Shown: in pieces, positions 1 through 64,000 of the stretch
How positions within the stretch are numbered: the stretch's first letter is position 1
Layout: each line of letters begins with the position of its first letter
NCBI GenBank assembly: GCA_964016885.1
Contig: OZ024761.1
Location: forward strand, 806,001 to 870,000
Reading direction: 5' to 3'
DNA from: Eledone cirrhosa
Lineage: Eukaryota
Length of the DNA stretch: 64,000 nt
Made by a program: the position numbers and the translations under genes
The notes under the pieces: model-generated
Seen by the model: the letters and a program-made list of their open reading frames with translations, nothing else
What the model was told of the DNA's origin: nothing
The model's database searches: none

Positions 1-2458
1 CAGCAACCTGCCAATCACCTAATAACCTACAAATCTGGCAAGCACATAAGTCAGATTGACTTCTTACTAGTTAGGCAGCGGGACAGGCAGATAGTGTCTA
101 ATACCAAGGCATACCCTGGGGAAGAATGTACCCCACAGCATAGGTTAGTCGTTAGTGATATCTCAGTAAGCAAGAGATGGAATGAGACATACAGGAAGGT
201 GTGGAGAAGAAAGGTCTGGAAGCTAAAAGACCTTTCACTAAAATACAAATTTAGGAAAGCCCTTCAAGATGAATATGACGAAAAAGAAGACGATTTAGAG
301 ACATATGACATAGATAATAACTGGAATTTCTTACGTGATAACTTGCTGTAGGCTACTGATGAAACTTGTGGCTGGAGCAGAGCTTCAACCAGACAGAGAG
401 TGACCTGGTAGTGGAACAGCACAGTAGATAAGGCCATTAGAGACAAAAGACTAGCATGGAAGGCTTGGAAAACGGGTGGGAGTAGGGAAGAATATACAGC
501 CACTAAGAGAGAAGCTAGGCGTCAGGTGTACTTAGCACGCAGGGAGGCTGAGAGTAGAAGGTTTGCCAATGCTCTGCGACGGGAAGATCAGAGGCGTGCG
601 GTGTTCCACATTGCAAGGCAGTGTGTCAATGTAAATCAGGATGTTGTTGGAGATGTGTCTGGAATGATGCCGGTGTACTTAGTGTCATGAATGATCAGAA
701 AAAGGAGGCCTGGAAATGTCATTATGAGAAACTGATGAATGTGGAAAACGAATGGGAGAAAGAGAAATTACCCTTGGTAGATCCGACAGAGGGACCAGCT
801 ATTGAGATTGACGAATATAGGGTCCAAGAGGCGATTAAGGAAATGAAAAATAGTAAGGCTGCTGGACCATCGGGAATAGTTGCTGAGATGCTGAAGGCAT
901 CAGGGGACGTAGGCACTAAACTGGTTGCACGCATCATCAATCAGGCTATATATGGTGGTGTCATACCCAAAGACTGGTGCAACAGTATTCTCATAAATTG
1001 CTACAAAGGTAAAGGGGATGCTCTGGAGAGGAGCAATTATAGGGGTATAAAACAGATGGATCAGGTTATGAAAGTGGCAGAAAAGATATTAGCACAACTA
1101 ATTACAGAAAGGGTCAAACTAGATGAGATGCAGTTTGGTTTTGTGCCTGGGAAAAGTACAACAGATGCCCTCTTCAATTGCAAGAAAAATAAGCCACTAT
1201 ACAAAGCCTTTGTTGACCTAGAGAAGGCCTTTGATAGGGTACCCCAATCTGTCATCTCGTGGTCCCTAAGGAAACTAGGTGTTGAGGAATGGCTTGTGAG
1301 GACAGTGCAAACTTTGTACAGAGGTACTCTCAGTAAAGTCAGGGTAGGAATGGAGTTTAGTGAGGAATTCCAGATACAAGTAGGAGTACATCAAGGTTCA
1401 GTCCTCAGCCCGCTGTTGTCCTCCAAGCCATAACAGAGGAGTTTAAGACTGGCTGTCCATGGGAACTTCTCTATGCTGACGATCTGGTTCTTATAGCAGA
1501 ATCAGTAGAGGAGCTAGAGAATAAATTCTGGCTATGGAAACAGCAGTTGAAAGCAAGAGGACTGAGAGTGAACCTAGCTAAGACAAAAGTGTTGATGAGT
1601 AGAAAAGAGGACAAAACTCTGATTCCGTCAGGGAAATGGCCATGTTCGATATGCAGAAAATGAACTGGCATAAATTCTATAAAATGCACACAATGCCGAT
1701 CCTGGGTACACAAGAGATGTAGCGGGATAGCAAGCAAACTAACAGGTAGGGAGAAATATGTATGCAGTAGATGTACAGGGAAATTAGACAGTAGAAGTTG
1801 CATTGATAGACACATTTTTCAAATATAGGATGGTGCTATAGAAGCTTCTGGTACCTAGATCAAATTAACATGGGAGGAGGGGGGGGGGATTTCCAAGGCC
1901 ATAGTATCTAGAATAAGGACGGGTTGGAAGAAGTTTAGGGAGCTGCTTCCTCTGCTGACGAAGGTTTACTGCCTGCGTACGAAAGGCCGGTTGTATGATG
2001 CCTGTGTGAGGAGCGCGATGCTGCATGGTAGTGAGACATGGGCAGAAACTGCAGAGGATATGCAACGGCTGGAGAGAAATGAGGCAAGCATGCTCCGTTG
2101 GATGTGCAGTGTCAATGTGCGTGAACAACCCAGCATGAATGTGTTGAGAGAGAAACTGTGTCTGAGAGGGATAGAATGTAGTGTACGGGAGAGGCGACTG
2201 AGGTGGTATGGACATGTGATGCGCATGGAGGATGACCGATGGGTGAAGAAGTGCCAGGAAATGCCAGTTGAAGGAAGACTTGGTAGAGATAAGACCACGA
2301 AAAATATGGGCGGAGGTGGTGAGAACAGACCTCAGATCGTTGAAGCTCACGGTGGAGATGACGAAGGACCATGACGAGTGGAGAGATGCTGTGCTGAATA
2401 AGACTCGTCCCACCCTTGCAAGCAGGGAAGAGCGGACGTAAAATGATGATGATGATGA
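1..2458 (+). mobile_element. RTE-clade non-LTR retrotransposon (subfamily A), decayed ORF2 (end of APE, RT, PHD-like finger), short 3' UTR and (ATG)n tail; runs off the left edge
   Basis: Frameshifted ORFs with KAAGPSGI, YKGKGDALERSNYRGI, QFGFVPGKSTTDA, FVDLEKAFDRVP, GVHQGSVLSP, YADD (1472-1483), MLHGSETW and RRLRWYGHVMR. Ends GGACGTAAAATGATGATG. Confidence 0.93.
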
Positions 2459-2494
2459 TATATATACACACACACATATATATATATATATATA

Positions 2495-3250
2495 GAAGTG
2501 TTTACACAACAGTTAGTTCACCATACCGAGAACAATTGTTTCACCTTAGCGGATCCTCAGCTCGGAATGGGCATGATTATAGGAACAGGAAGGATAACCG
2601 TACGAACGCGCATGCGCAGAAACCTGGTGACTTCACACAGGCAATACTAGAATGCGGGCGAGAGGTGTAAGGGAGATAACTGCGAAAGTCCGATAAGTTT
2701 TTAGTTGAAAAATAAAATAAAGAATCAGTCCGGAGCCTTGTAGTTATGCATTTCTTGTGTTTAGGCAATCACTATTGCGTAATCTTTTCAGAATAGTTAT
2801 TCGTTCGTCAATACATAAGCCACACGTCGGATTTCCCCTTGCGTATGGCTTGGACTTACTGATGGATTTCCATTGAATGGAGTAGTCTATACTTGAGTCC
2901 TTGATGGACCATACGTGGCTCGCGAGTTTCGTGGATGAACATCTGTCCTGGTACCTGAAGGTAGACTGGTGGTTCAGGAAACGTTCCTTAAATCGGCCCT
3001 CCGCCTTGCCCACATAGGATTTGACCGCCTGTGGTTCGTTTCGTCGGTTGGAAGTGACCACAGCTTCGTAAATTACAGCTGGTGTGTTGCATTGCTGTTG
3101 AAGGGGGCAAGCTTCTGACTCTTACGGCAAGAGCACCCTGGTGGGGTGTTGGTCCTAGGGCTGCTGGTGATGTGGGCCTTCATGTTCTTAGTGCAGGAGT
3201 ATCCTAGTTTAACTTTGTGTCGGTTAAAGATGGAGCGGTATTTATGACCT
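2495..3250 (-). mobile_element. 5'-truncated Penelope-like element: GIY-YIG C-terminus, 3' UTR and hammerhead
   Basis: Minus-strand peptide VIYEA..KSYVGKAEGRFKERFLNHQSTF..LASHVWSIK..CGLCIDE..LN aligns by eye with the C-terminus of the intact PLE ORF at 58714-60867. Flanked by (TA)n on both sides. Confidence 0.88.
2521..2570 (-). ncRNA. Minimal type I hammerhead ribozyme
   Basis: RNA: CCAUUCCGAG-CUGAGGA-UCCGCUAAGGU-GAAA-CAAUUG-UU^CUCGGUAUGG. Stem I is 10 bp with one U.U mismatch; loop III is palindromic. Confidence 0.85.
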
Positions 3251-3265
3251 ATATATATATATATA

Positions 3266-3496
3266 TAGCAACGAGTAGGACCCCAACGGCTGAGCTCAAG
3301 CCGTTTCGACGGCTAATTCTGGACTTTAAAAAAAAAAAATTGATTTTTTTTTTTTAGTCCAGAATTAGCCGTCGAAACGGCTTGAGCTCAGCCGTCGGGG
3401 TGCTACTCGTTCCTATTACCCACTCTACTACCCTAAGTATTGAGTACTTTGGTGCGTTATGGTCCACCTGGTTCCTTACCACATTTCCTTCGTTAT
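3266..3496. mobile_element. Small fold-back PLE terminal-repeat insertion, sister family of the 57.5-64 kb element
   Basis: 3268-3327 is the reverse complement of about 3356-3415. The right arm continues about 80 nt and matches the minus strand of 60958-61098. (TA)n on both sides. Confidence 0.85.
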
Positions 3497-4675
3497 ATAT
3501 ATATATATACACACGTATATATATGTGTGTATACATACATATCCTAAACGGACGGTAGTCCGTTTAGTAATATTGTTGTAGTCGTGTTTTCGTTGGCAAT
3601 CGTCTGTTTACGACAGTACAGTGCAGCTCTACTTTATTTAACTGAGATAAAACTTATATGAGCATGAACAGTAGATCATTACGCATCTTTTGGCTTAAAA
3701 ATCTAGAAATTTGGTCCAGCGGGAAAAAGTTTATAATCAAAGTTTGCTGATAAATCTTGTGTTCAAGTGAGTGAGTAGTAAGCGTGACGCTAGGGGAGGT
3801 AATTACGAGGTAATTACAAGGGGAGGTAATCTAATATATTTCAAATTGTATTTTTAACTAAATTCATTTATCATAGTCTAATATTTTAAAAATAGGTGAG
3901 TGCTCCACGATGATGACACATGTCCCCGCCATGTGGAGGGGATGCTTAGGAGCCATCCAGATATCATGTGACCATTTTTGGTTCGTGGTGTCCACATGAT
4001 ATCTGGATGGCCCTTTATACTAATTAGTCATTTATCTGCATAAAAATTATACCAGATCATTCTGATTATTGGCTTGAAATCTTTTACAGAATTAGTATGA
4101 GCAACTAAGAGGTCATCAATAGAAATAGAATTACTTTTTGAAGTTTTCATGCACAGCATTTTTTGGGATTTTAAATAAAAGTTAATATCATAATTCTTAT
4201 TTTGTATACCCACATTGCAGATACAGAGAACATGACAATCCTATATAAAGGTCGTAGACAGCAGTATCAGTTTTTATCCGTAACACCATTGAAATGCACA
4301 AGTTTCACCAATTCACTATTATGCACTAATCATCTCAAATGCATTCATGATTTACTAGCTTTGTCATTAAGCCAGTTGCCTCAACTAGATTGCAATTATA
4401 CTCAAAAGAACTTTAAAATGTCTATCACTTGTCAGTAATTCACTATGATCTTTTAATTATTAGATAGTTGTTGCTTGCATTGCCTTAAAAAATAGTAGAC
4501 CAGATAGAAAAATGCGTACAGCAAAAAAAAGTAATATTGTTGGAATATAAACCTTTAAAAATACAGGACAAGAAACTAAAATAAAACTTTAAAAGAATAG
4601 GACAAGAAGCTAAAATAAAACTTTAAAAGAATAGGACAAGAAACTAAGATAAAACTTTAAAGAATTGAACAAGTA

Positions 4676-10478: not shown

Positions 10479-10686
10479 ATAGGAACGAGTAGGACCCCGA
10501 CGGCTGAGCTCAAGCCGACTCGAGGGCTAATTCTGGACTCGATTTAGTCCAGAACTAGCCGTCGAAACGGCTTGAACTCAGCCGTCGGGGTCCTACTCGT
10601 TCCTATTACCCACTCTACTACCCTAAGTATTGAGTACTTTGGTGCGTTATGGTCCACCTGGTTCCTTACCAGATTTCCTTCGTTAT
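10479..10686. mobile_element. Second small fold-back PLE terminal-repeat insertion (same family as 3266-3496)
   Basis: Inverted arms meet at CTGGACT-CGATTT-AGTCCAG. The right arm ends TTTCCTTCGTTAT(TA)n exactly as at 3496. Confidence 0.85.
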
Positions 10687-10900
10687 ATATATATATATAT
10701 AGTCATATACACACATATATATATATATACCTATTTATATACACATATATATATATACACATATATATATATATATATATACACATATATATATATATAT
10801 ACATATATATATACATACATACATATATATATACATATATATATACATACATACATATATATATACATATATATATACATACATACATACATATATATAT

Positions 10901-54849: not shown

Positions 54850-54942
<93 letters not shown>

Positions 54943-55192
54943 TAGGGGAGAGGTGTGACCTATTGGCCAATTCCATAAGAAATTGCTCAAAGTATCTTGG
55001 AATATATTCAGATAATTATGGAGAGGTATTGGAAGAGAATGAATAATAGAGCGTGTGGGAGGGAAGAGAGGGGGATGAGGAAGGGAGGAAGAGAGGGGGA
55101 CGAGGGGGGAGGAAGAGAGGGGGACGAGGAAGGGAGAGAGTTACTGTAGATTTTTATTCACAATTCACATATCTATTTTGGAATCTCTCTCT

Positions 55193-55235
<43 letters not shown>

Positions 55236-55259
55236 AACACAGATATACATACATGCACA

Positions 55260-55292
<33 letters not shown>

Positions 55293-55329
55293 CTCATACA
55301 CACACACATACATATATATACTCATACAT

Positions 55330-55367
<38 letters not shown>

Positions 55368-55492
55368 TCATATATATATATATATACTCATACACACACA
55401 CATACATATATATACACACACATACATATATATACTCATACATACACATATATATATATATACTCCTATATACACACATACACATATATATA

Positions 55493-57443
55493 CAGTGGCG
55501 TAGCTAGGGTAAATGGCACTCAGGGCAAGCATCAAAATTGAAATAGAAATCGTCAACATTATTTGAATGCTGATTCGCAAATTGGGAAAAACACATTCAT
55601 CGCCGTATTGTATGATGACTTGGAGAAGTGCCTCCGGCTTTAAAATTGGGTCAGCTGTCCTAGTAGCCAGCAAAGATCGGCAGTCCAAGATTTCCTCATA
55701 CAATTGCTCTCCGTCGATGTCCGAGTTGTATAGTTCCGCAAGACTGTTGCACCTTTGTTTAAGGACAAGGTTATCAGGAGCAGCCAAATAAAACAGATAG
55801 TTGACATCAAAAAGAAAGCCAAAACTTGAGTCGGTTTCCTTAAGTCGAATAAACCATTCTTCCATTTCTGTTTGAAGACGATTGAGTGAACTTTGCATTG
55901 CTCTCTCTATCTCTTTCTTGGCAGCCACCTCGACGTCCTCAGTAATTTCGGTATTGGTTTGTCGTCTTCCTCGCCTCCTCGGAAAATCGACATTCCATTT
56001 CTGGCAGAGGTCGAAGCCCATTTCAAGAGACTCGTGGATTAAGGATGTTCCTTCTTTAAAATAAAGTTGAAGGGCTCCTATATCAGCTGCAGCATTGGGA
56101 AAATTAATTCTTGGATCTTGAAGTCTCTTTTGAACCCGGTCAATTCGTGAGAGAATAGTGTTCCAGAATCCAATTAAGTTCAGGAATTCATAACTCAGTA
56201 TCCGATTATAGAGATTACTGGCATTACTTCTACTCTCGCATGTCTCTGTTTCATCATCACTAATTTTTTTGAGAACTTGAACAATCAGCGTCAAATAATT
56301 CGCCACCGGTTTGACTGCGGTACATCTAGCACTCCACCGCGTGTCGGAAGGATATTTAACAACCACTGGCGCAACTTCTTTAAGGGCCTCCCATCGTCAT
56401 GTTGAACGAGAAAAAAGGTTGTATAACGAGTCAATGCAACTGAAAAAGTTCATCATAGCAGAATCGTTTTTGGTAGCATGAAGACCAGCCAGATTAAGTG
56501 AATGGTTATTGCAATTAACGAAGTGAATCAAATTCTTCTTCTCTCTCATTCTCTGCTGAACCCCATTACGGCAGCATTGTCGTAGCACTGCGATCGACAG
56601 TTCTGCAGTGGTAGGTCATCTTTTACTAGCTCTTTCACGATTGTTTCAACAAGGCTTGCGGCATCTTTTTTGATTACTTGAATGAATCCAAGAAAAGATT
56701 CCCTCACAACGACCATCTTCATATTGAAATCAACATCGACATATCGCACAACTTTTGACAGTTGTTCTCGGTGCACCTGGTCAGAGGTCGAATCAATCAG
56801 CAGACGATAGTATCTTGCTTTTTGGATACAATTTAGTAAATTCTGACGAACTGTATTATAGAAGAAAACATTGAACCATCTAAACTGGAGTCAAATTGAA
56901 TTCCTAATAGAAGCTATCCGATCCTATCTGGCCATTTGGATTATGATACCTTTTCTATACGTCTTATGTACCAGTTGTAAAAGACAAACTACTCTGTTTT
57001 GTAAACCAGCTTCATAATTATAATTATCTTGTATTGGTCATTGCAATACAATGATAAAAATAGCGCCTGCGTGTCCACCAGTTGCACGTCCAAAACTACG
57101 TCCCTTCAGTCAGTGTGTGAGTGTGGAGGGGGTTGTGAGGTCAAGTGGGGTATCCGCTGTTTTGCAATGTATAGCTAAAAATAGCGCCCGCATAATTGCA
57201 ACTCACCCTGCTGTCAATGTGGAAGGGGGGGTTGTTAAGTCAAATCAGACATCTGCTCTGTCTAGTGCACTAGACATGGCGTGGAAGTCGGCTATCAAGA
57301 AATCACATGCTTCATTTTTGGCTTATATTTTTAAAAATGATAAAAACGACATGGATGTGAATCGATCTAGGTCGAAATTGCGCCCCCCTAAATATGGCGC
57401 CCAAGGCATGTGCCCTGCTTGCCACACCCTAGCTACGCTACTG
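55493..57443 (-). mobile_element. hAT DNA transposon (Tip100/ZMYM-like), internally deleted, both TIRs present
   Basis: TIRs CAGTGGCGTAGCTAGGGT and ACCCTAGCTACGCTACTG (one mismatch), with TATATATA on both sides. Transposase motifs IDSTSD..EQLSKVVRYV, QCYDNAAVM, CNNHSLNL and DTRWSAR. Confidence 0.9.
55530..56855 (-). pseudogene. hAT transposase, disrupted
   Basis: Three frameshifted pieces; N-terminus and the end of the dimerisation domain are deleted. Confidence 0.85.
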
Positions 57444-57521
57444 TATATATATATGTATATATATATATATATATACTCCTACATACATATATATATATAT
57501 ATATATATAGGAACCAGTAAG

Positions 57522-57615
57522 ACCCCGACAGCTGAGCTCAAGCCGTTTCGACGGCTAATTCTGGACTAAATGAACATTTATCCTGGTATTTAAATAGCCG
57601 ATCTTCTCAAGGGGT
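57522..57615 (-). ncRNA. Type I hammerhead with U3-A8 core and extended stem II (PLE unit junction, copy 1)
   Basis: ACCCC-UUGAGAA-GAUCGGCUA(37 nt)UAGCCGUC-GAAA-CGGCU(UGAGCUC)AGCUG-UC^GGGGU; predicted cut between 57527 and 57526. Confidence 0.87.
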
Positions 57616-58713
57616 AATTCCATATATGGTCAAAGTGATTGTCAAAAATCAGTAGTAATTCTGTGGTTGCAAATTAGTAGGGGAGATGGTGGCTAAACCT
57701 GCCAGTAGGAGAAAGAGGGGAGGGGGTGGAGTAGACCCAATCAAGCGTTGGTAGTGCCAGCTACAGCTGGGCATGAGGTCAAAGAAGATACAGGGGAGGG
57801 GGAGGGGGAGGAAGTCGGAACGGTAGGTAGAACAATGGGGGGTAAAAATAGGAAAGAAAAAATACTGAGAGTGAAGAAAAGCAAAAAAGTGTAAAGAAAA
57901 AATTAAATTCTACGACCTAGGTGTCAGGCTATTGTTAGGCGAGAATAAAATAAAGAAAGAAAGAAAGAAGTAAATAAATAAATAAATAAATAAATAAGGA
58001 AATAAGTAAAAGAACTAGGTGGGACGAATTAAGCAAGGACCCTTTTAAGAGGTATAAGTACGTAAATGATACGGTGACTGGTCAACAAAAGGGGCCAAAA
58101 TACTAAAGAGACTACCACGAAATAAACAATAAAGGTTTCCATCCCGGGCCAGCAACGACCCAGTGCAGCAAAGTGAACTTGTACGACATAATAATTCTGA
58201 GTCCCGGGAAAAATATATACTAATGCTAACTCTAAAAGATCTAAAACAAGCTACATGAAAGTTCGTACGAAATAAAGGTAGAATACGGAGAAATAAGTTC
58301 AGAATCCACCCCGCCCAGAAGAAAAGCGAAGCAAGAAATACTGAAACGAAAAAATAAGGCATAAGTGCCACTAAGAAATAAAGAGGGCACAGAGAATAGT
58401 GGGAGCGGTCGGAAAAGGGGGGCAAGTATCCGGGGTCTAAGCCAACTGCTATAAAGGGCGGAGTCCGCCAAATCTATCAAAGACTAGGGGAGGGGGGAGT
58501 GGGGGTACTAAGGCTACATGGGGCCAAAGGGCAGCCTCGGGTGGGCGAGAAAAGACGCCGACAAAGGAGAAGAGCTGGGGTAGAAGGACAAAGGAGAGAG
58601 GGGGGAAGGAAATAAAGGATGCGATAAAAGAATACAAAGAAGATCTTACGTCTTCCTTGGCAAGCAGGGGTTACCCATTGCAAAATCGGCAACTGGGGTG
58701 TTAAAGCCCTAGT

Positions 58714-60867
58714 CTACCCCCCCGGGTCATTATGGGGTTTGAGGGCGAGGTAAGTCCTACGCAATCTATGTTTACATGCAGTAACCAGTTCATCTTTCTT
58801 GTTTAGGAGTTGGTCCGTCGAAAACAGCATTTGTAAAGTTTCCTCCGAGCATAAATTGCACGGACGGCGTCCTCCCGTGTAAGAATTGGCTCTGGACAGT
58901 AATCTCCAAGTGAGATCATAGGTGATGTTGTTGTCCTTGAGGTCCCATATGTGGCCCGAAAGTGTAGTGGCGTGACGCCGGGCCGGGTTTCGGAAGGTAT
59001 GTCTATGTTGGTATAGCCGGGTCTTGAAGTCACATGCGGTAAGTCCTATATAGGCTTTGTTGGAGGTATCCGTCCTCACGTTGCACTGGTAGATCACATT
59101 ACGGTCTCTGCATCTATTGTCGAGTGGGCAAATAGATCTATCCGGGCAGTTACACCTCCTGGTCGGTTCTCCACTGCTATTTAGGTTATTTCTGCCATCG
59201 GGGTTGAGTTTTTTGTTGTTAGAGGAGACGATGTTTTGTGCGAAGTTTGGTGTAGTGCTGTAAGAGAGTTTGATGGTATTTTTGTTAATTATGTTGTGGT
59301 AGCGGTGTTGTAATGGGAAGTGTTTTTCAATGAGCCTAAAGAATAGTTTCCCGATGGGAGTAGTCACCTCTGCGTTGTGGGGAGGATTGAACCATGTTAC
59401 ATTGCGTGAGCGGCGGTGTCTCCTGCTGGTTCCGCTAATGGGATCTGGACAGTAGGATATTTCCTCCCGGAAACCACTCCGCTTGAGGGCCTGGTTGTAA
59501 TAAGGCGCATGTTCATCGAATATCCGCTCATTAGCTGACAAACGGGATATGCGGAGGGAGATGTTTTTGACCAGGTTGTTTGTGATGTTCCTAGGATGGT
59601 TTGATCGGCGGTGGATGTAGTGCAGATTGTCATTAGGTTTCCTGTATGGGTAGTACAGGTCGTTTTCGAGGTCGAGGGTTACGTCCAGGAAGTTTACTCG
59701 GGTCAGGGACGTTTGTAGGGTTATTTTAAATCCCCAGTCGCGGAAGAATCTGATTAATTGTTTCCGGACCCGATCTGTACTACTGGGGTTGTACCCTTTA
59801 AGGGTAAGGAGCCCATCATCACGGTACAATCCACCACCGAATGCAGGAAACATATCAGTGAGTTTGGCTATTAGGAATAATCCTATAAGATCAGTGACCT
59901 CCGCCGAATCCGTGGCGCCCATGCTGACGTCGAAGGGTGAGTCGGGAGCTCTTTTTATCCATTTAGAGTCGTCAAAGAGTAAGACTGTCTTCCTGGCGTG
60001 GAGGATGATTTTTCTTTCCTGGTCGGTGATGGGCACGAGTGTTTCGGCGAAGTCCAAGGCGGCAGTAAGTAGCGGTAAGGTGATTGAAGCATAGTAGCTC
60101 TCTATGTCGAACTGTATGAATTTAGTTTCTCGTTTATCCTCCATATTGCTGAACCAGGAGATTACTTCCTGGGTGTTGATCCATAGGCTAAGTCGGGTGT
60201 GTTGCTTGACTTTTGGTATCACGCGGTCTAGGATTTTTTTGCTGATTCTCCCTATGTCGGACTTCGTTGGGTTAATAAGCCTGATGGAGGGTTTACGGTC
60301 AAAATCGGATTTATGGTCCTTCAGTGTGAAGTATGGTGTCCGTGGGTCTAGAGGTTCCGTGCGGTCGGCGACCCCGAGGCTGGAGGTGATGTGTTGTCCA
60401 TCTCGATTTATGTCCTCGATGCAAGAGTGGTTGGCCTTTTTATAGGTGGAGTTTAGGCTGCTCCTGATCAGTGTGTGGTATCTGTCAGGGTTGACAAAGT
60501 ATAGGTTCCCAGTTTTATCCGAATGCACCATGATGTCATTTGTGTTATCATACTCTGTTAAGTTGCTACGGAGTTTTTGTAGGAATCGGTTGTGTCTGGG
60601 TTTAAATTTAATGTTCTTGACCAGTTGGAAGAGGTCATTCTCGAAGGGTGCGAGCAAGGGGTTCAGGGGCGGAGATTTGTAGGTAATAAATCCGAATCTC
60701 TCCTTGGTGCCGAAGTCTTGGTTGTCGCAATATCTGTCATAGAAAAAAGTTCTCCATCTAAGTCTTTTCGCAAATAGATCAATTTTTTGCGTGAGCATCC
60801 GAAGGTAAAGTTTTTTCGGTGGGATTGGGATGTTCTTGGTAGAGAAGTCAATGTTGTGTTTTCGCAT
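58714..60867 (-). CDS. PLE reverse transcriptase plus C-terminal GIY-YIG endonuclease, intact, 717 aa from the first ATG
   Basis: SDKTGN, FDIESYY, MGATDSAEVTDL, YRDDGL and FLDVTL; linker CNCPDRSIC (CxCx5C); NVIY..AYIGLT, FKTRLYQH, SGHIW, CNLCSEE and LLNK. Confidence 0.93.
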   Translation of the reverse strand: MRKHNIDFSTKNIPIPPKKLYLRMLTQKIDLFAKRLRWRTFFYDRYCDNQDFGTKERFGFITYKSPPLNPLLAPFENDLFQLVKNIKFKPRHNRFLQKLRSNLTEYDNTNDIMVHSDKTGNLYFVNPDRYHTLIRSSLNSTYKKANHSCIEDINRDGQHITSSLGVADRTEPLDPRTPYFTLKDHKSDFDRKPSIRLINPTKSDIGRISKKILDRVIPKVKQHTRLSLWINTQEVISWFSNMEDKRETKFIQFDIESYYASITLPLLTAALDFAETLVPITDQERKIILHARKTVLLFDDSKWIKRAPDSPFDVSMGATDSAEVTDLIGLFLIAKLTDMFPAFGGGLYRDDGLLTLKGYNPSSTDRVRKQLIRFFRDWGFKITLQTSLTRVNFLDVTLDLENDLYYPYRKPNDNLHYIHRRSNHPRNITNNLVKNISLRISRLSANERIFDEHAPYYNQALKRSGFREEISYCPDPISGTSRRHRRSRNVTWFNPPHNAEVTTPIGKLFFRLIEKHFPLQHRYHNIINKNTIKLSYSTTPNFAQNIVSSNNKKLNPDGRNNLNSSGEPTRRCNCPDRSICPLDNRCRDRNVIYQCNVRTDTSNKAYIGLTACDFKTRLYQHRHTFRNPARRHATTLSGHIWDLKDNNITYDLTWRLLSRANSYTGGRRPCNLCSEETLQMLFSTDQLLNKKDELVTACKHRLRRTYLALKPHNDPGG

Positions 60868-61052
60868 GGTGCGGGTGAAATGAATTGAGCTTAGCGGAAA
60901 AGTCTGGATACGGCGTGGTAGGGTCGGAAAGTGCTCTACTACGGGAGTAGGAGCTAGATAACGAAGGAAATGTGGTAAGGAACCAGGTGGACCATAACGC
61001 ACCAAAGTACTCAATACTTGAGGTAGTAGAGTGGGTAATAGGAACCAGTAAG

Positions 61053-61146
61053 ACCCCGACAGCTGAGCTCAAGCCGTTTCGACGGCTAATTCTGGACTAA
61101 ATGAACATTTATCCTGGTATTTAAATAGCCGATCTTCTCAAGGGGT
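61053..61146 (-). ncRNA. Type I hammerhead with U3-A8 core (PLE unit junction, copy 2)
   Basis: Identical to 57522-57615; predicted cut between 61058 and 61057, 190 nt upstream of the ATG. Confidence 0.87.
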
Positions 61147-62244
61147 AATTCCATATATGGTCAAAGTGATTGTCAAAAATCAGTAGTAATTCTGTGGTTG
61201 CAAATTAGTAGGGGAGATGGTGGCTAAACCTGCCAGTAGGAGAAAGAGGGGAGGGGGTGGAGTAGACCCAATCAAGCGTTGGTAGTGCCAGCTACAGCTG
61301 GGCATGAGGTCAAAGAAGATACAGGGGAGGGGGAGGGGGAGGAAGTCGGAACGGTAGGTAGAACAATGGGGGGTAAAAATAGGAAAGAAAAAATACTGAG
61401 AGTGAAGAAAAGCAAAAAAGTGTAAAGAAAAAATTAAATTCTACGACCTAGGTGTCAGGCTATTGTTAGGCGAGAATAAAATAAAGAAAGAAAGAAAGAA
61501 GTAAATAAATAAATAAATAAATAAATAAGGAAATAAGTAAAAGAACTAGGTGGGACGAATTAAGCAAGGACCCTTTTAAGAGGTATAAGTACGTAAATGA
61601 TACGGTGACTGGTCAACAAAAGGGGCCAAAATACTAAAGAGACTACCACGAAATAAACAATAAAGGTTTCCATCCCGGGCCAGCAACGACCCAGTGCAGC
61701 AAAGTGAACTTGTACGACATAATAATTCTGAGTCCCGGGAAAAATATATACTAATGCTAACTCTAAAAGATCTAAAACAAGCTACATGAAAGTTCGTACG
61801 AAATAAAGGTAGAATACGGAGAAATAAGTTCAGAATCCACCCCGCCCAGAAGAAAAGCGAAGCAAGAAATACTGAAACGAAAAAATAAGGCATAAGTGCC
61901 ACTAAGAAATAAAGAGGGCACAGAGAATAGTGGGAGCGGTCGGAAAAGGGGGGCAAGTATCCGGGGTCTAAGCCAACTGCTATAAAGGGCGGAGTCCGCC
62001 AAATCTATCAAAGACTAGGGGAGGGGGGAGTGGGGGTACTAAGGCTACATGGGGCCAAAGGGCAGCCTCGGGTGGGCGAGAAAAGACGCCGACAAAGGAG
62101 AAGAGCTGGGGTAGAAGGACAAAGGAGAGAGGGGGGAAGGAAATAAAGGATGCGATAAAAGAATACAAAGAAGATCTTACGTCTTCCTTGGCAAGCAGGG
62201 GTTACCCATTGCAAAATCGGCAACTGGGGTGTTAAAGCCCTAGT

Positions 62245-63742
62245 CTACCCCCCCGGGTCATTATGGGGTTTGAGGGCGAGGTAAGTCCTACGCAATCTAT
62301 GTTTACATGCAGTAACCAGTTCATCTTTCTTGTTTAGGAGTTGGTCCGTCGAAAACAGCATTTGTAAAGTTTCCTCCGAGCATAAATTGCACGGACGGCG
62401 TCCTCCCGTGTAAGAATTGGCTCTGGACAGTAATCTCCAAGTGAGATCATAGGTGATGTTGTTGTCCTTGAGGTCCCATATGTGGCCCGAAAGTGTAGTG
62501 GCGTGACGCCGGGCCGGGTTTCGGAAGGTATGTCTATGTTGGTATAGCCGGGTCTTGAAGTCACATGCGGTAAGTCCTATATAGGCTTTGTTGGAGGTAT
62601 CCGTCCTCACGTTGCACTGGTAGATCACATTACGGTCTCTGCATCTATTGTCGAGTGGGCAAATAGATCTATCCGGGCAGTTACACCTCCTGGTCGGTTC
62701 TCCACTGCTATTTAGGTTATTTCTGCCATCGGGGTTGAGTTTTTTGTTGTTAGAGGAGACGATGTTTTGTGCGAAGTTTGGTGTAGTGCTGTAAGAGAGT
62801 TTGATGGTATTTTTGTTAATTATGTTGTGGTAGCGGTGTTGTAATGGGAAGTGTTTTTCAATGAGCCTAAAGAATAGTTTCCCGATGGGAGTAGTCACCT
62901 CTGCGTTGTGGGGAGGATTGAACCATGTTACATTGCGTGAGCGGCGGTGTCTCCTGCTGGTTCCGCTAATGGGATCTGGACAGTAGGATATTTCCTCCCG
63001 GAAACCACTCCGCTTGAGGGCCTGGTTGTAATAAGGCGCATGTTCATCGAATATCCGCTCATTAGCTGACAAACGGGATATGCGGAGGGAGATGTTTTTG
63101 ACCAGGTTGTTTGTGATGTTCCTAGGATGGTTTGATCGGCGGTGGATGTAGTGCAGATTGTCATTAGGTTTCCTGTATGGGTAGTACAGGTCGTTTTCGA
63201 GGTCGAGGGTTACGTCCAGGAAGTTTACTCGGGTCAGGGACGTTTGTAGGGTTATTTTAAATCCCCAGTCGCGGAAGAATCTGATTAATTGTTTCCGGAC
63301 CCGATCTGTACTACTGGGGTTGTACCCTTTAAGGGTAAGGAGCCCATCATCACGGTACAATCCACCACCGAATGCAGGAAACATATCAGTGAGTTTGGCT
63401 ATTAGGAATAATCCTATAAGATCAGTGACCTCCGCCGAATCCGTGGCGCCCATGCTGACGTCGAAGGGTGAGTCGGGAGCTCTTTTTATCCATTTAGAGT
63501 CGTCAAAGAGTAAGACTGTCTTCCTGGCGTGGAGGATGATTTTTCTTTCCTGGTCGGTGATGGGCACGAGTGTTTCGGCGAAGTCCAAGGCGGCAGTAAG
63601 TAGCGGTAAGGTGATTGAAGCATAGTAGCTCTCTATGTCGAACTGTATGAATTTAGTTTCTCGTTTATCCTCCATATTGCTGAACCAGGAGATTACTTCC
63701 TGGGTGTTGATCCATAGGCTAAGTCGGGTGTGTTGCTTGACT
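62245..63742 (-). pseudogene. Second PLE ORF copy, 5'-truncated at the inversion junction
   Basis: Translation identical to the C-terminal part of copy 1; the match ends at 63742. Confidence 0.9.
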
Positions 63743-63761
63743 AAGTCGGGTGTGTTGCTTG

Positions 63762-64000
63762 CCCATTACAACACCGCTACCACAACATAATTAACAAAAA
63801 TACCATCAAACTCTCTTACAGCACTACACCAAACTTCGCACAAAACATCGTCTCCTCTAACAACAAAAAACTCAACCCCGATGGCAGAAATAACCTAAAT
63901 AGCAGTGGAGAACCGACCAGGAGGTGTAACTGCCCGGATAGATCTATTTGCCCACTCGACAATAGATGCAGAGACCGTAATGTGATCTACCAGTGCAACG
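63762..64000 (+). pseudogene. Inverted PLE ORF segment (PLQHRYHNIINKNTIK...)
   Basis: Reverse complement of 62610-62848. Confidence 0.92.

Follow-up and report, generated by a model that had tools for sequence, protein, structure and literature searches.

The stretch of the Eledone cirrhosa genome analysed here (contig OZ024761.1, positions 806,001 to 870,000 of the forward strand; G000:C22:806001-870000 of the 3.0-Gb genome; 64,000 nucleotides (nt), hereafter the window) contains a Penelope-like element (PLE) that was copied twice across the predicted cut of its own hammerhead ribozyme. This raises the question of how a reverse transcriptase (RT) can write more than one unit of such an element in a row. 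On balance, the copies present in the genome favour an RT that writes the long insertions by making more than one round on a single 3531-nt RNA, probably a covalent circle cut by the hammerhead and religated. The window element itself is intact, very young and one of many copies of a coding retroelement. An earlier interpretation of the letters of the window, the sequence-only reading, had called it an intact, young and autonomous PLE, in agreement with its identical units and its open 717-aa open reading frame (ORF) for an RT and a GIY-YIG endonuclease.

Positions within the unit are counted from the first base after the predicted cut, so that unit 1 is window position 61057 and unit 3531 is position 57527 and, in the upstream copy, 61058. 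At an offset of exactly 3531, the 2705 nt of positions 57507-60211 match those of 61038-63742 with zero mismatches. Together with two matches in a descriptor search, this repeat confirms the two hammerheads 3531 nt apart that had been seen to bracket one full ORF. The minus-strand arm runs from 63742 to 57507, which corresponds to 6236 nt or 1.77 units, and crosses the predicted cut twice (61058/61057 and 57527/57526). It ends 20 nt past the second cut; the sequence-only reading had the identical units and both crossings right and placed the end about 19 nt past the cut. The last 20 nt (57507-57526, minus) reach the RT start site designated +20, where the terminal 3 nt (TAT) are common with the (TA)n target in the left flank (57460-57506). 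They are preceded by the 3' untranslated region (UTR) of the complete unit (57527-58713, minus, 1187 nt), the ORF (58714-60867, minus) and the 5' UTR after the first cut (60868-61057, minus, 190 nt), in agreement with the 190 nt and about 1.19 kb given earlier. The 5' UTR contains the +20 (61038) and +100 (60958) RT start sites, and the 80 nt between them form the 'tail'. Upstream lies a 5'-truncated copy (unit 847-3531; 61058-63742, minus) with a truncated ORF (62245-63675), which represents the pseudo-long terminal repeat (pseudo-LTR).

At the head-to-head junction, a 19-nt duplicated insert (63743-63761, minus) was copied from the 5' end of the long arm. The inverted arm follows on the plus strand from 63762 (unit 1741 onward) and continues for about 1.65 kb outside the window to approximately G000:C22:871652 (0.54 unit). 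It crosses the cut once and ends 100 nt past it, in (TA)n. A partial tandem with an inverted copy and a tail is the ordinary layout of a PLE (PMC8557442), and we therefore do not follow the sequence-only reading in taking this single locus as a sign of a circle. None of the contigs listed from four public runs spans the inversion junction of the locus, which is uninformative either way, and the output of a repeat search of the window was dominated by microsatellites. An assembly artefact is unlikely to be the cause of the layout, because 66 long arms at mapped loci cross the cut a second time.

The 717-aa ORF (60867-58714) is open throughout. A Pfam scan of it found no family. Of 7997 scored candidates, 2052 were related to it at E ≤ 0.001, mostly unnamed proteins of 38-43% identity. 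A structure model built from an alignment of 115 proteins reached a predicted local distance difference test score (pLDDT) of 93.4, and its best Foldseek matches were TERT (3du5, E 2.4e-8) and yeast telomerase. The RT motifs are FD254 and YRDD351. A GIY-YIG domain in the same ORF was assigned by motif (VIY...YIG at 591-608); its residues Y593, Y606, G608, R617, E676 and N689 are kept in at least 98% of the 115 aligned proteins.

Compared with the Hydra clade of PLEs (Craig et al. 2021, PMC8557442), the single ORF shows the same order of RT and then GIY-YIG. The RWK motif is present as RWR at 37-39 (K to R) and DKG as DKT at 117-119; the clade shows RW[K/R] and DKT. Shared are also the CxCX5C linker (CNCPDRSIC, 572-580), CxxC (CNLC, 670-673) and CxH (CKH, 698-700). 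The CCHH motif is absent from both, as no CxxC was found between VIY and YIG. Insertion into (TA)n, another feature of the clade, was found at both ends of the window insertion and in nearly all mapped arms. More generally, a single telomerase-like RT ORF, the GIY-YIG domain, a partial tandem with a pseudo-LTR, an inverted 5'-truncated copy, a one-sided tail and a predicted hammerhead characterise PLEs with an endonuclease (EN+), and all are present here. The Eledone unit of 3531 nt differs in length from the described Hydra-clade elements, which are mostly shorter than 3 kb; it exceeds this value because of its 1.19-kb 3' UTR, and the length appears in PMC8557442 as a tendency and not as a definition. 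Its tail also differs, with 80 nt compared to 30-40 nt. Based on these motifs, the element belongs to the Hydra clade of C-terminal EN+ PLEs.

On the minus strand between 56.5 and 64 kb, the descriptor search found exactly two type I hammerheads. Each has a U3-A8 core, and its stems measure 5, 8 and 6 bp. The second one (57522-57615, minus, predicted GUC cut at 57527/57526) consists of ACCCC, the UUGAGAA core with U3-A8, an 8-bp stem II with a 37-nt loop II, GAAA and a palindromic stem III loop. The first (61053-61146, minus, predicted cut at 61058/61057) is identical, and copy ends pile up at its cut. Neither matched Rfam at the gathering score and the fold was no better than that of shuffles (z -0.79), so the call rests on the core letters, the stems and the family footprint. 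U3-A8 is a natural variant of PLE hammerheads for which covariation is reported (PMC4209133). The five Hydra hammerheads seen in the supplement of PMC8557442 have C3-G8 and loops of 4-9 nt, in contrast to the U3-A8 and long loop II of Eledone. Among 77 related metagenome loci, a sense hammerhead was found in 38 and an antisense one in 3, and 37 of the 38 sense hammerheads have a C3-G8 core. Two Hydra-type loci on metagenome contigs (L250 and L265) carry extra hammerheads on the opposite strand; the two of L250 are identical and 281 nt apart. In an older subfamily of the Eledone element, C replaces T at unit 3528 (window 61061), which turns a G-U pair of stem III into G-C.

Exact genome matches number 10,324 for a 30-mer spanning the cut, 7,386 for the +20 end plus TA and 23,631 for the +100 end plus TA, while sequence continuing past +100 has 147. 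We mapped 87 long-copy loci, 17 of them top BLAST matches and the rest from 99 of the first 100 of the 147 read-through places. At these loci, the ORF is open in 39 of 84 complete ORF copies (32 of 69 loci). The copies have two fixed 3' ends: among 52 inverted pairs at long loci, 47 have a +20 end on one arm and a +100 end on the other, and in no pair are the two ends the same. Each start site is followed by a predicted bulged hairpin. The first (61009-61032, minus, z -1.45) lies 5 nt past +20 and consists of 4 bp, a 2-nt 3' bulge and 4 bp, then ACUUU; the second, of the same shape (60933-60954, minus, z -2.71), lies 3 nt past +100.

Whether a long arm was read from one template unit was examined in 56 non-array arms covering 46,243 sites, with the low-complexity tract at unit 3020-3160 omitted. 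For 34 variants present in both passes of at least two arms, the two passes agreed in 186 comparisons and disagreed in 8; adding the arrays and the low-complexity tract raised these counts to 356 and 18. In addition, 48 locus-private variants were present in both passes, in 22 of the 56 arms. The sequence nearest to the upstream pass by plain distance was the next pass of the same arm in 37 of 63 cases, was tied in 13 and was another one in 13. A tree of 27 arms paired the partial with the full unit in 15, placed two loci in one clade and left 10 unresolved; its bootstrap had not settled, and no clade separated partial from full units. Units are thus homogeneous per insertion, and since partial and full units carry the private variants of their own locus, we conclude that one monomer was read more than once, as the sequence-only reading had assumed of the template.

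These counts bear on a different template, namely uncleaved read-through RNA from multi-unit loci or upstream starts, with the units homogenised in the DNA by unequal crossing-over or gene conversion. The uncleaved read-through template is the model of PMC11167929, where the substrate in vitro was unprocessed RNA; the homogenisation in DNA is added to it here. Such loci do exist, as seven arrays of 2.38-4.55 units were found, most with DNA-level duplication. A start in the pseudo-LTR would, however, be expected to give long arms that end at unit 3491 and measure about 1.01-1.04 units, of which there are none among the 66. At each of four young loci (L036, L039, L040 and L043), both passes share 3-5 private variants, most of which are also present in the inverted arm (17 loci compared), and none of the seven arrays seen matches these variants (first 100 of the 147 read-through places). 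Position-specific variants are not inherited either: the passes of the 56 arms differ at 140 sites, of which 3 recur in a second locus. We therefore regard read-through RNA as a decidedly improbable template.

The arrays do not decide the question. In four of them (C, E, F and G) the variants are nested, the usual pattern after duplication at the DNA level, unequal crossing-over or assembly. Array B has an alternating pattern indicating duplication of a two-unit block, array D is star-like, and array A, with one variable site, is too young for a decision. For C, E, F and G, and largely for B, we hence rejected the idea that an array above two units proves rolling-circle copying. An exponential fit to the second-pass lengths predicts about one primary arm of at least two units in 66, so that the arrays neither prove nor contradict a circle. 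A search for parent-daughter pairs, with a one-pass variant in the donor and both passes in the daughter, gave 12 candidate sites, none of them convincing; several resemble reversions or recurrent changes.

Several repeats of other kinds were found in the family. At L095:3788-6022 (G000:C2, near 356.03 Mb), a 299-nt derivative composed of unit 3433-3471, 3490-3531 and 1-221 is repeated 7.5 times. It has a complete hammerhead with a shortened loop II and a +100 end in (TA)n, and resembles a retrozyme born from the youngest subfamily; its junction was found at that locus only (7 matches). This array was rejected as proof of a circle, since two neighbouring units share a variant and the array may have grown as DNA. 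At L082-L083 (G000:C1:91489226-91492741), more than 60 tandem copies of a 55-nt ORF piece (unit 1714-1768) sit exactly between the head-to-head arms of a 4.54-unit insertion, either by reiterative RT copying or by later expansion. A 224-nt patchwork of unit 2683-2708, 3409-3442, 3409-3531 and 1-53 is present in about two repeats at the arm junction of L040:2751-3254.

The 5' ends of the copies fall into three classes. The first 90 +20 copies listed, all on one contig, comprise 70 arms with a stop at unit 3485-3510, 5 that stop exactly at unit 1, 5 that end between these points and 10 that extend further. An inverted +100 partner was found for 69 of the 90; 49 of these partners stop at unit 3485-3510 and 3 at unit 1. 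Accordingly, about 80% of short arms end 21-46 nt upstream of the cut and about 5% exactly at it. The larger class surrounds what we take to be a TATA-like motif, TATTTAAATA at 61127-61118, and an initiator (Inr)-like TTAGTC, whose A at 61098 (unit 3491) lies 41 nt before the cut and 29 nt after the start of TATTTAAATA. Both lie inside stem-loop II of the hammerhead, making 61098-61127 (minus) a likely promoter on account of its sequence, the clustered 5' ends and an extra G. A non-reference base precedes A3491 in 5,552 copies. The first 100 of them, scored by eye, have 40 G, 7 A and 53 C at this place; C was set aside because it is the base of the older subfamily at this position and because partner arms provide microhomology. 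Compared to the cut (G 8, A 14), the extra letter before A3491 is more often G (P 1e-4). A copied cap leaves an extra G in LINE-1, a long interspersed nuclear element (LINE) (PMC11702581). The clustering at the Inr-like A3491 together with the extra G points to a likely capped transcription start 41 nt before the cut, inside the ribozyme. A structural stall at the hammerhead is less likely, given the extra G.

PLE transcription is known to start in the upstream pseudo-LTR (PMC6765202, PMC3846280); in the literature searched, no report of a start inside the ribozyme was found. A promoter in the ribozyme is unsupported as a clade-wide trait, since the relatives mostly have short loops. With C at unit 3490, the older subfamily reads TCAGTC around the likely start. 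The window also holds two short copies from an older subfamily of the element (3266-3499 and 10480-10689), each with two arms that both stop near unit 3487-3491 and end in (TA)n. A second start site at unit 2528-2551, where 5 second-pass arms and several partners stop, was also considered, but the tract is C-rich and many arms continue; it was kept as a pause.

At the cut itself, the first 100 of 525 copies with a base other than C before unit 1 were scored by eye as 61 true truncations (T 39, A 14, G 8) and 39 point changes, which scales to about 320 arms ending exactly there. The same procedure gave 26 of the first 100 of 142 at unit 3530 (-2), or about 37 truncations, and about 46 of the first 100 of 145 at unit 6 (+6), or about 67. 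Both arms end at the cut with a single A or T between them at 49 loci and with G or C at 14. The pile-up is likely to reflect RT run-off from an uncapped end made by hammerhead cleavage in vivo.

Long arms behave differently at the same place. Stops at unit 3485-3510 were found in 119 of 143 short arms on the first crossing of the cut compared to 0 of 66 long arms on the second (P 2e-34); omitting the 18 arms taken from top BLAST matches leaves 0 of 48. Only one of the 52 partners of long arms stops in this interval, indicating that the class belongs to the insertion and not to the arm. The joints are seamless: in 187 cut junctions of long arms, a number that includes first and later passes as well as duplicated array units, one 1-nt deletion, zero insertions and no change of T3490 to G were observed. 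Equal drop-off on both passes was not found (mean 1516 versus 862 nt, P 0.004), and this comparison was left unused as the first-pass set is biased to long insertions.

The sequence-only reading had argued that a cut linear monomer cannot template complementary DNA (cDNA) across the cut, whereas a religated circle copied more than once gives the layout seen. This needs correction, since retrovirus-like strand transfer would give nearly the same DNA without a covalent circle: strong-stop cDNA would move from the 5' to the 3' copy of a 41-nt redundancy (unit 3491-3531, plus the tail if uncut). This redundancy is just what the likely start 41 nt before the cut would produce, most copies resemble failed strong-stop products, and jumps from the cap region do occur (8 loci). 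Strand transfer also accounts for shared variants and seamless joints with cleavage unneeded, as in PMC11167929. Yet it must succeed at each second arrival at the cap, with 0 failures in 66 (upper 95% bound 4.4%), although most insertions fail the first time. No cap-derived G was found in the 187 joints, and two loci (L034 and L042) have both arms longer than one unit, for which four transfers are needed. Given these values, we consider strand transfer an unlikely source of the long insertions.

Alternatively, a cut linear monomer could serve as template if the RT jumped from its 5'-OH end to its 3' end without ligation. The RT of R2 makes such end-to-end template jumps. Cut 5' ends do serve as templates here, and among the first 100 of the 525 copies with a base other than C before unit 1, one has 9 extra nt exactly at the cut and 8 have an extra G there. 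However, run-off at the cut usually adds untemplated letters, whereas insertions were found in 0 of the 187 long-arm joints, and only 1 of the 66 long arms ends near the cut on the second crossing. The probability that we assign to this jump is very small.

Copying round a single RNA, probably a circle, would proceed as follows. RNA polymerase II would start at the promoter inside the ribozyme with a capped A, 41 nt before the cut. The endonuclease would nick both (TA)n strands, and two RTs would prime at +20 and +100 on one RNA. On a capped linear RNA they would run off after about 60 and 140 nt, giving most copies, and on a cut RNA at the cut, giving about 5% of copies. On an endless RNA they would continue to a random fall-off, giving about 10% of copies and rebuilding the pseudo-LTR and promoter. 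For the 5' cut, the ribozyme could be completed by pairing of the 5' end of the RNA with the half-ribozyme near its 3' end, through a dimer of the palindromic loop III, by a second RNA or by a start further upstream. The two half-ribozymes are computed to co-fold into a full hammerhead at -23.4 kcal/mol, and the loop III dimer gives -27.7. By analogy to retrozymes, whose monomers are circularised by RtcB in vitro (PMC7229834), a host RtcB-type ligase may close the circle. Cleavage at the predicted site, as proposed by the sequence-only reading, agrees with the pile-up of copy ends. Simple co-transcriptional release of a cut-to-cut monomer is no longer the default, since the likely start lies inside the first hammerhead.

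Several observations weigh against copying round a circle. A transcript from the likely start site lacks the 5' half of the first hammerhead, and an extra step is therefore needed for the 5' cut. The 140 discordant sites remain, which we read as later mutations or RT errors, and arrays can homogenise units in DNA without a circle. The pile-up at the cut could derive entirely from short 3' fragments released by the second hammerhead. Short copies may stem mostly from transcripts of solo pseudo-LTRs, and the contrast between first and second pass would then test strand transfer less well. Insertion of a Poseidon PLE in vitro did not depend on cleavage, and no reads had either of their ends at the cut (PMC11167929). 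Finally, RT jumping is a real route: at eight short loci, a run-off at unit 3488-3502 is joined to unit 162-326, the joint having 0-5 additional letters or a 1-nt overlap. These rotated mini-copies, which run off near the likely cap and resume at unit 162-326, are L096, L097, L102, L104, L110, L121, L125 and L154; the same 5' position recurs in L110, L154 and L096.

A more detailed proposal is possible but doubtful as a whole. The element would be an autonomous animal retrotransposon that moves via a 3.5-kb coding circular RNA. Its promoter would be built into the ribozyme, so that transcription would split the hammerhead, and the full-length RNA alone would reassemble it from both of its ends, shed its cap and close. 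Two RTs would then copy the circle, while capped or cut linear RNAs would give only short abortive copies.

The circle model for PLE tandems, which the sequence-only reading had put forward, was already in print. Cervera and de la Pena (2014, PMC4209133) proposed that the hammerhead cuts, that the ends are ligated and that reverse transcription over more than one unit gives head-to-tail tandems. Their proposal is tentative, to which the Eledone family adds family-wide footprints in the DNA and a likely start inside the ribozyme. PAc, a Poseidon element of Anolis (Frangieh et al. 2024, PMC11167929), is similar in that both strands of an AT-rich target are cut and extended and that two internal RT start sites bound the tail, as +20 and +100 do in Eledone. 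Its template is taken as uncleaved multi-copy mRNA, whereas Eledone shows a pile-up of copy ends at the cut and homogenised units within each insertion.

Metazoan non-LTR retrozymes (PMC7229834; bioRxiv 10.64898/2026.07.22.740005) share the type I hammerhead, the head-to-tail units and a link to PLEs, which is also described in PMC5680766. They are non-coding, 170-400 nt long and non-autonomous, and their circles have been shown, in contrast to the Eledone unit, which encodes an RT and an endonuclease and is known from DNA alone. The 3531-nt unit with its ORF lies outside this definition, and only the 299-nt derivative at L095 fits it. In the open-access literature, which was the scope of our search, neither a circular RNA of a coding PLE nor cleavage footprints at PLE 5' ends were found; the supplements of PMC8557442 and bioRxiv 10.64898/2026.07.22.740005 may list related elements. 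The circle idea itself is the 2014 proposal. New is an autonomous element with footprints of cap, cut and homogenisation and with a likely promoter inside its ribozyme.

The remaining left flank of the insertion (54900-57400) holds pieces of a decayed DNA-transposon-like ORF (55368-56021), which we take to resemble hAT transposases.

How PLEs rebuild the pseudo-LTR and what their hammerheads are for is contested, as one paper proposed a circle and another found cleavage dispensable in vitro. The Eledone family is young and abundant, and its genomic copies preserve where the templates had their 5' ends. It also provides named nucleotides for testing, namely the cap site, the cut and both start sites with the hairpin that follows each. 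If the circle is true, it would represent a third means, besides LTR strand transfer and the internal promoters of LINEs, by which a retroelement preserves its promoter, and it would supply the autonomous partner needed by animal retrozymes.

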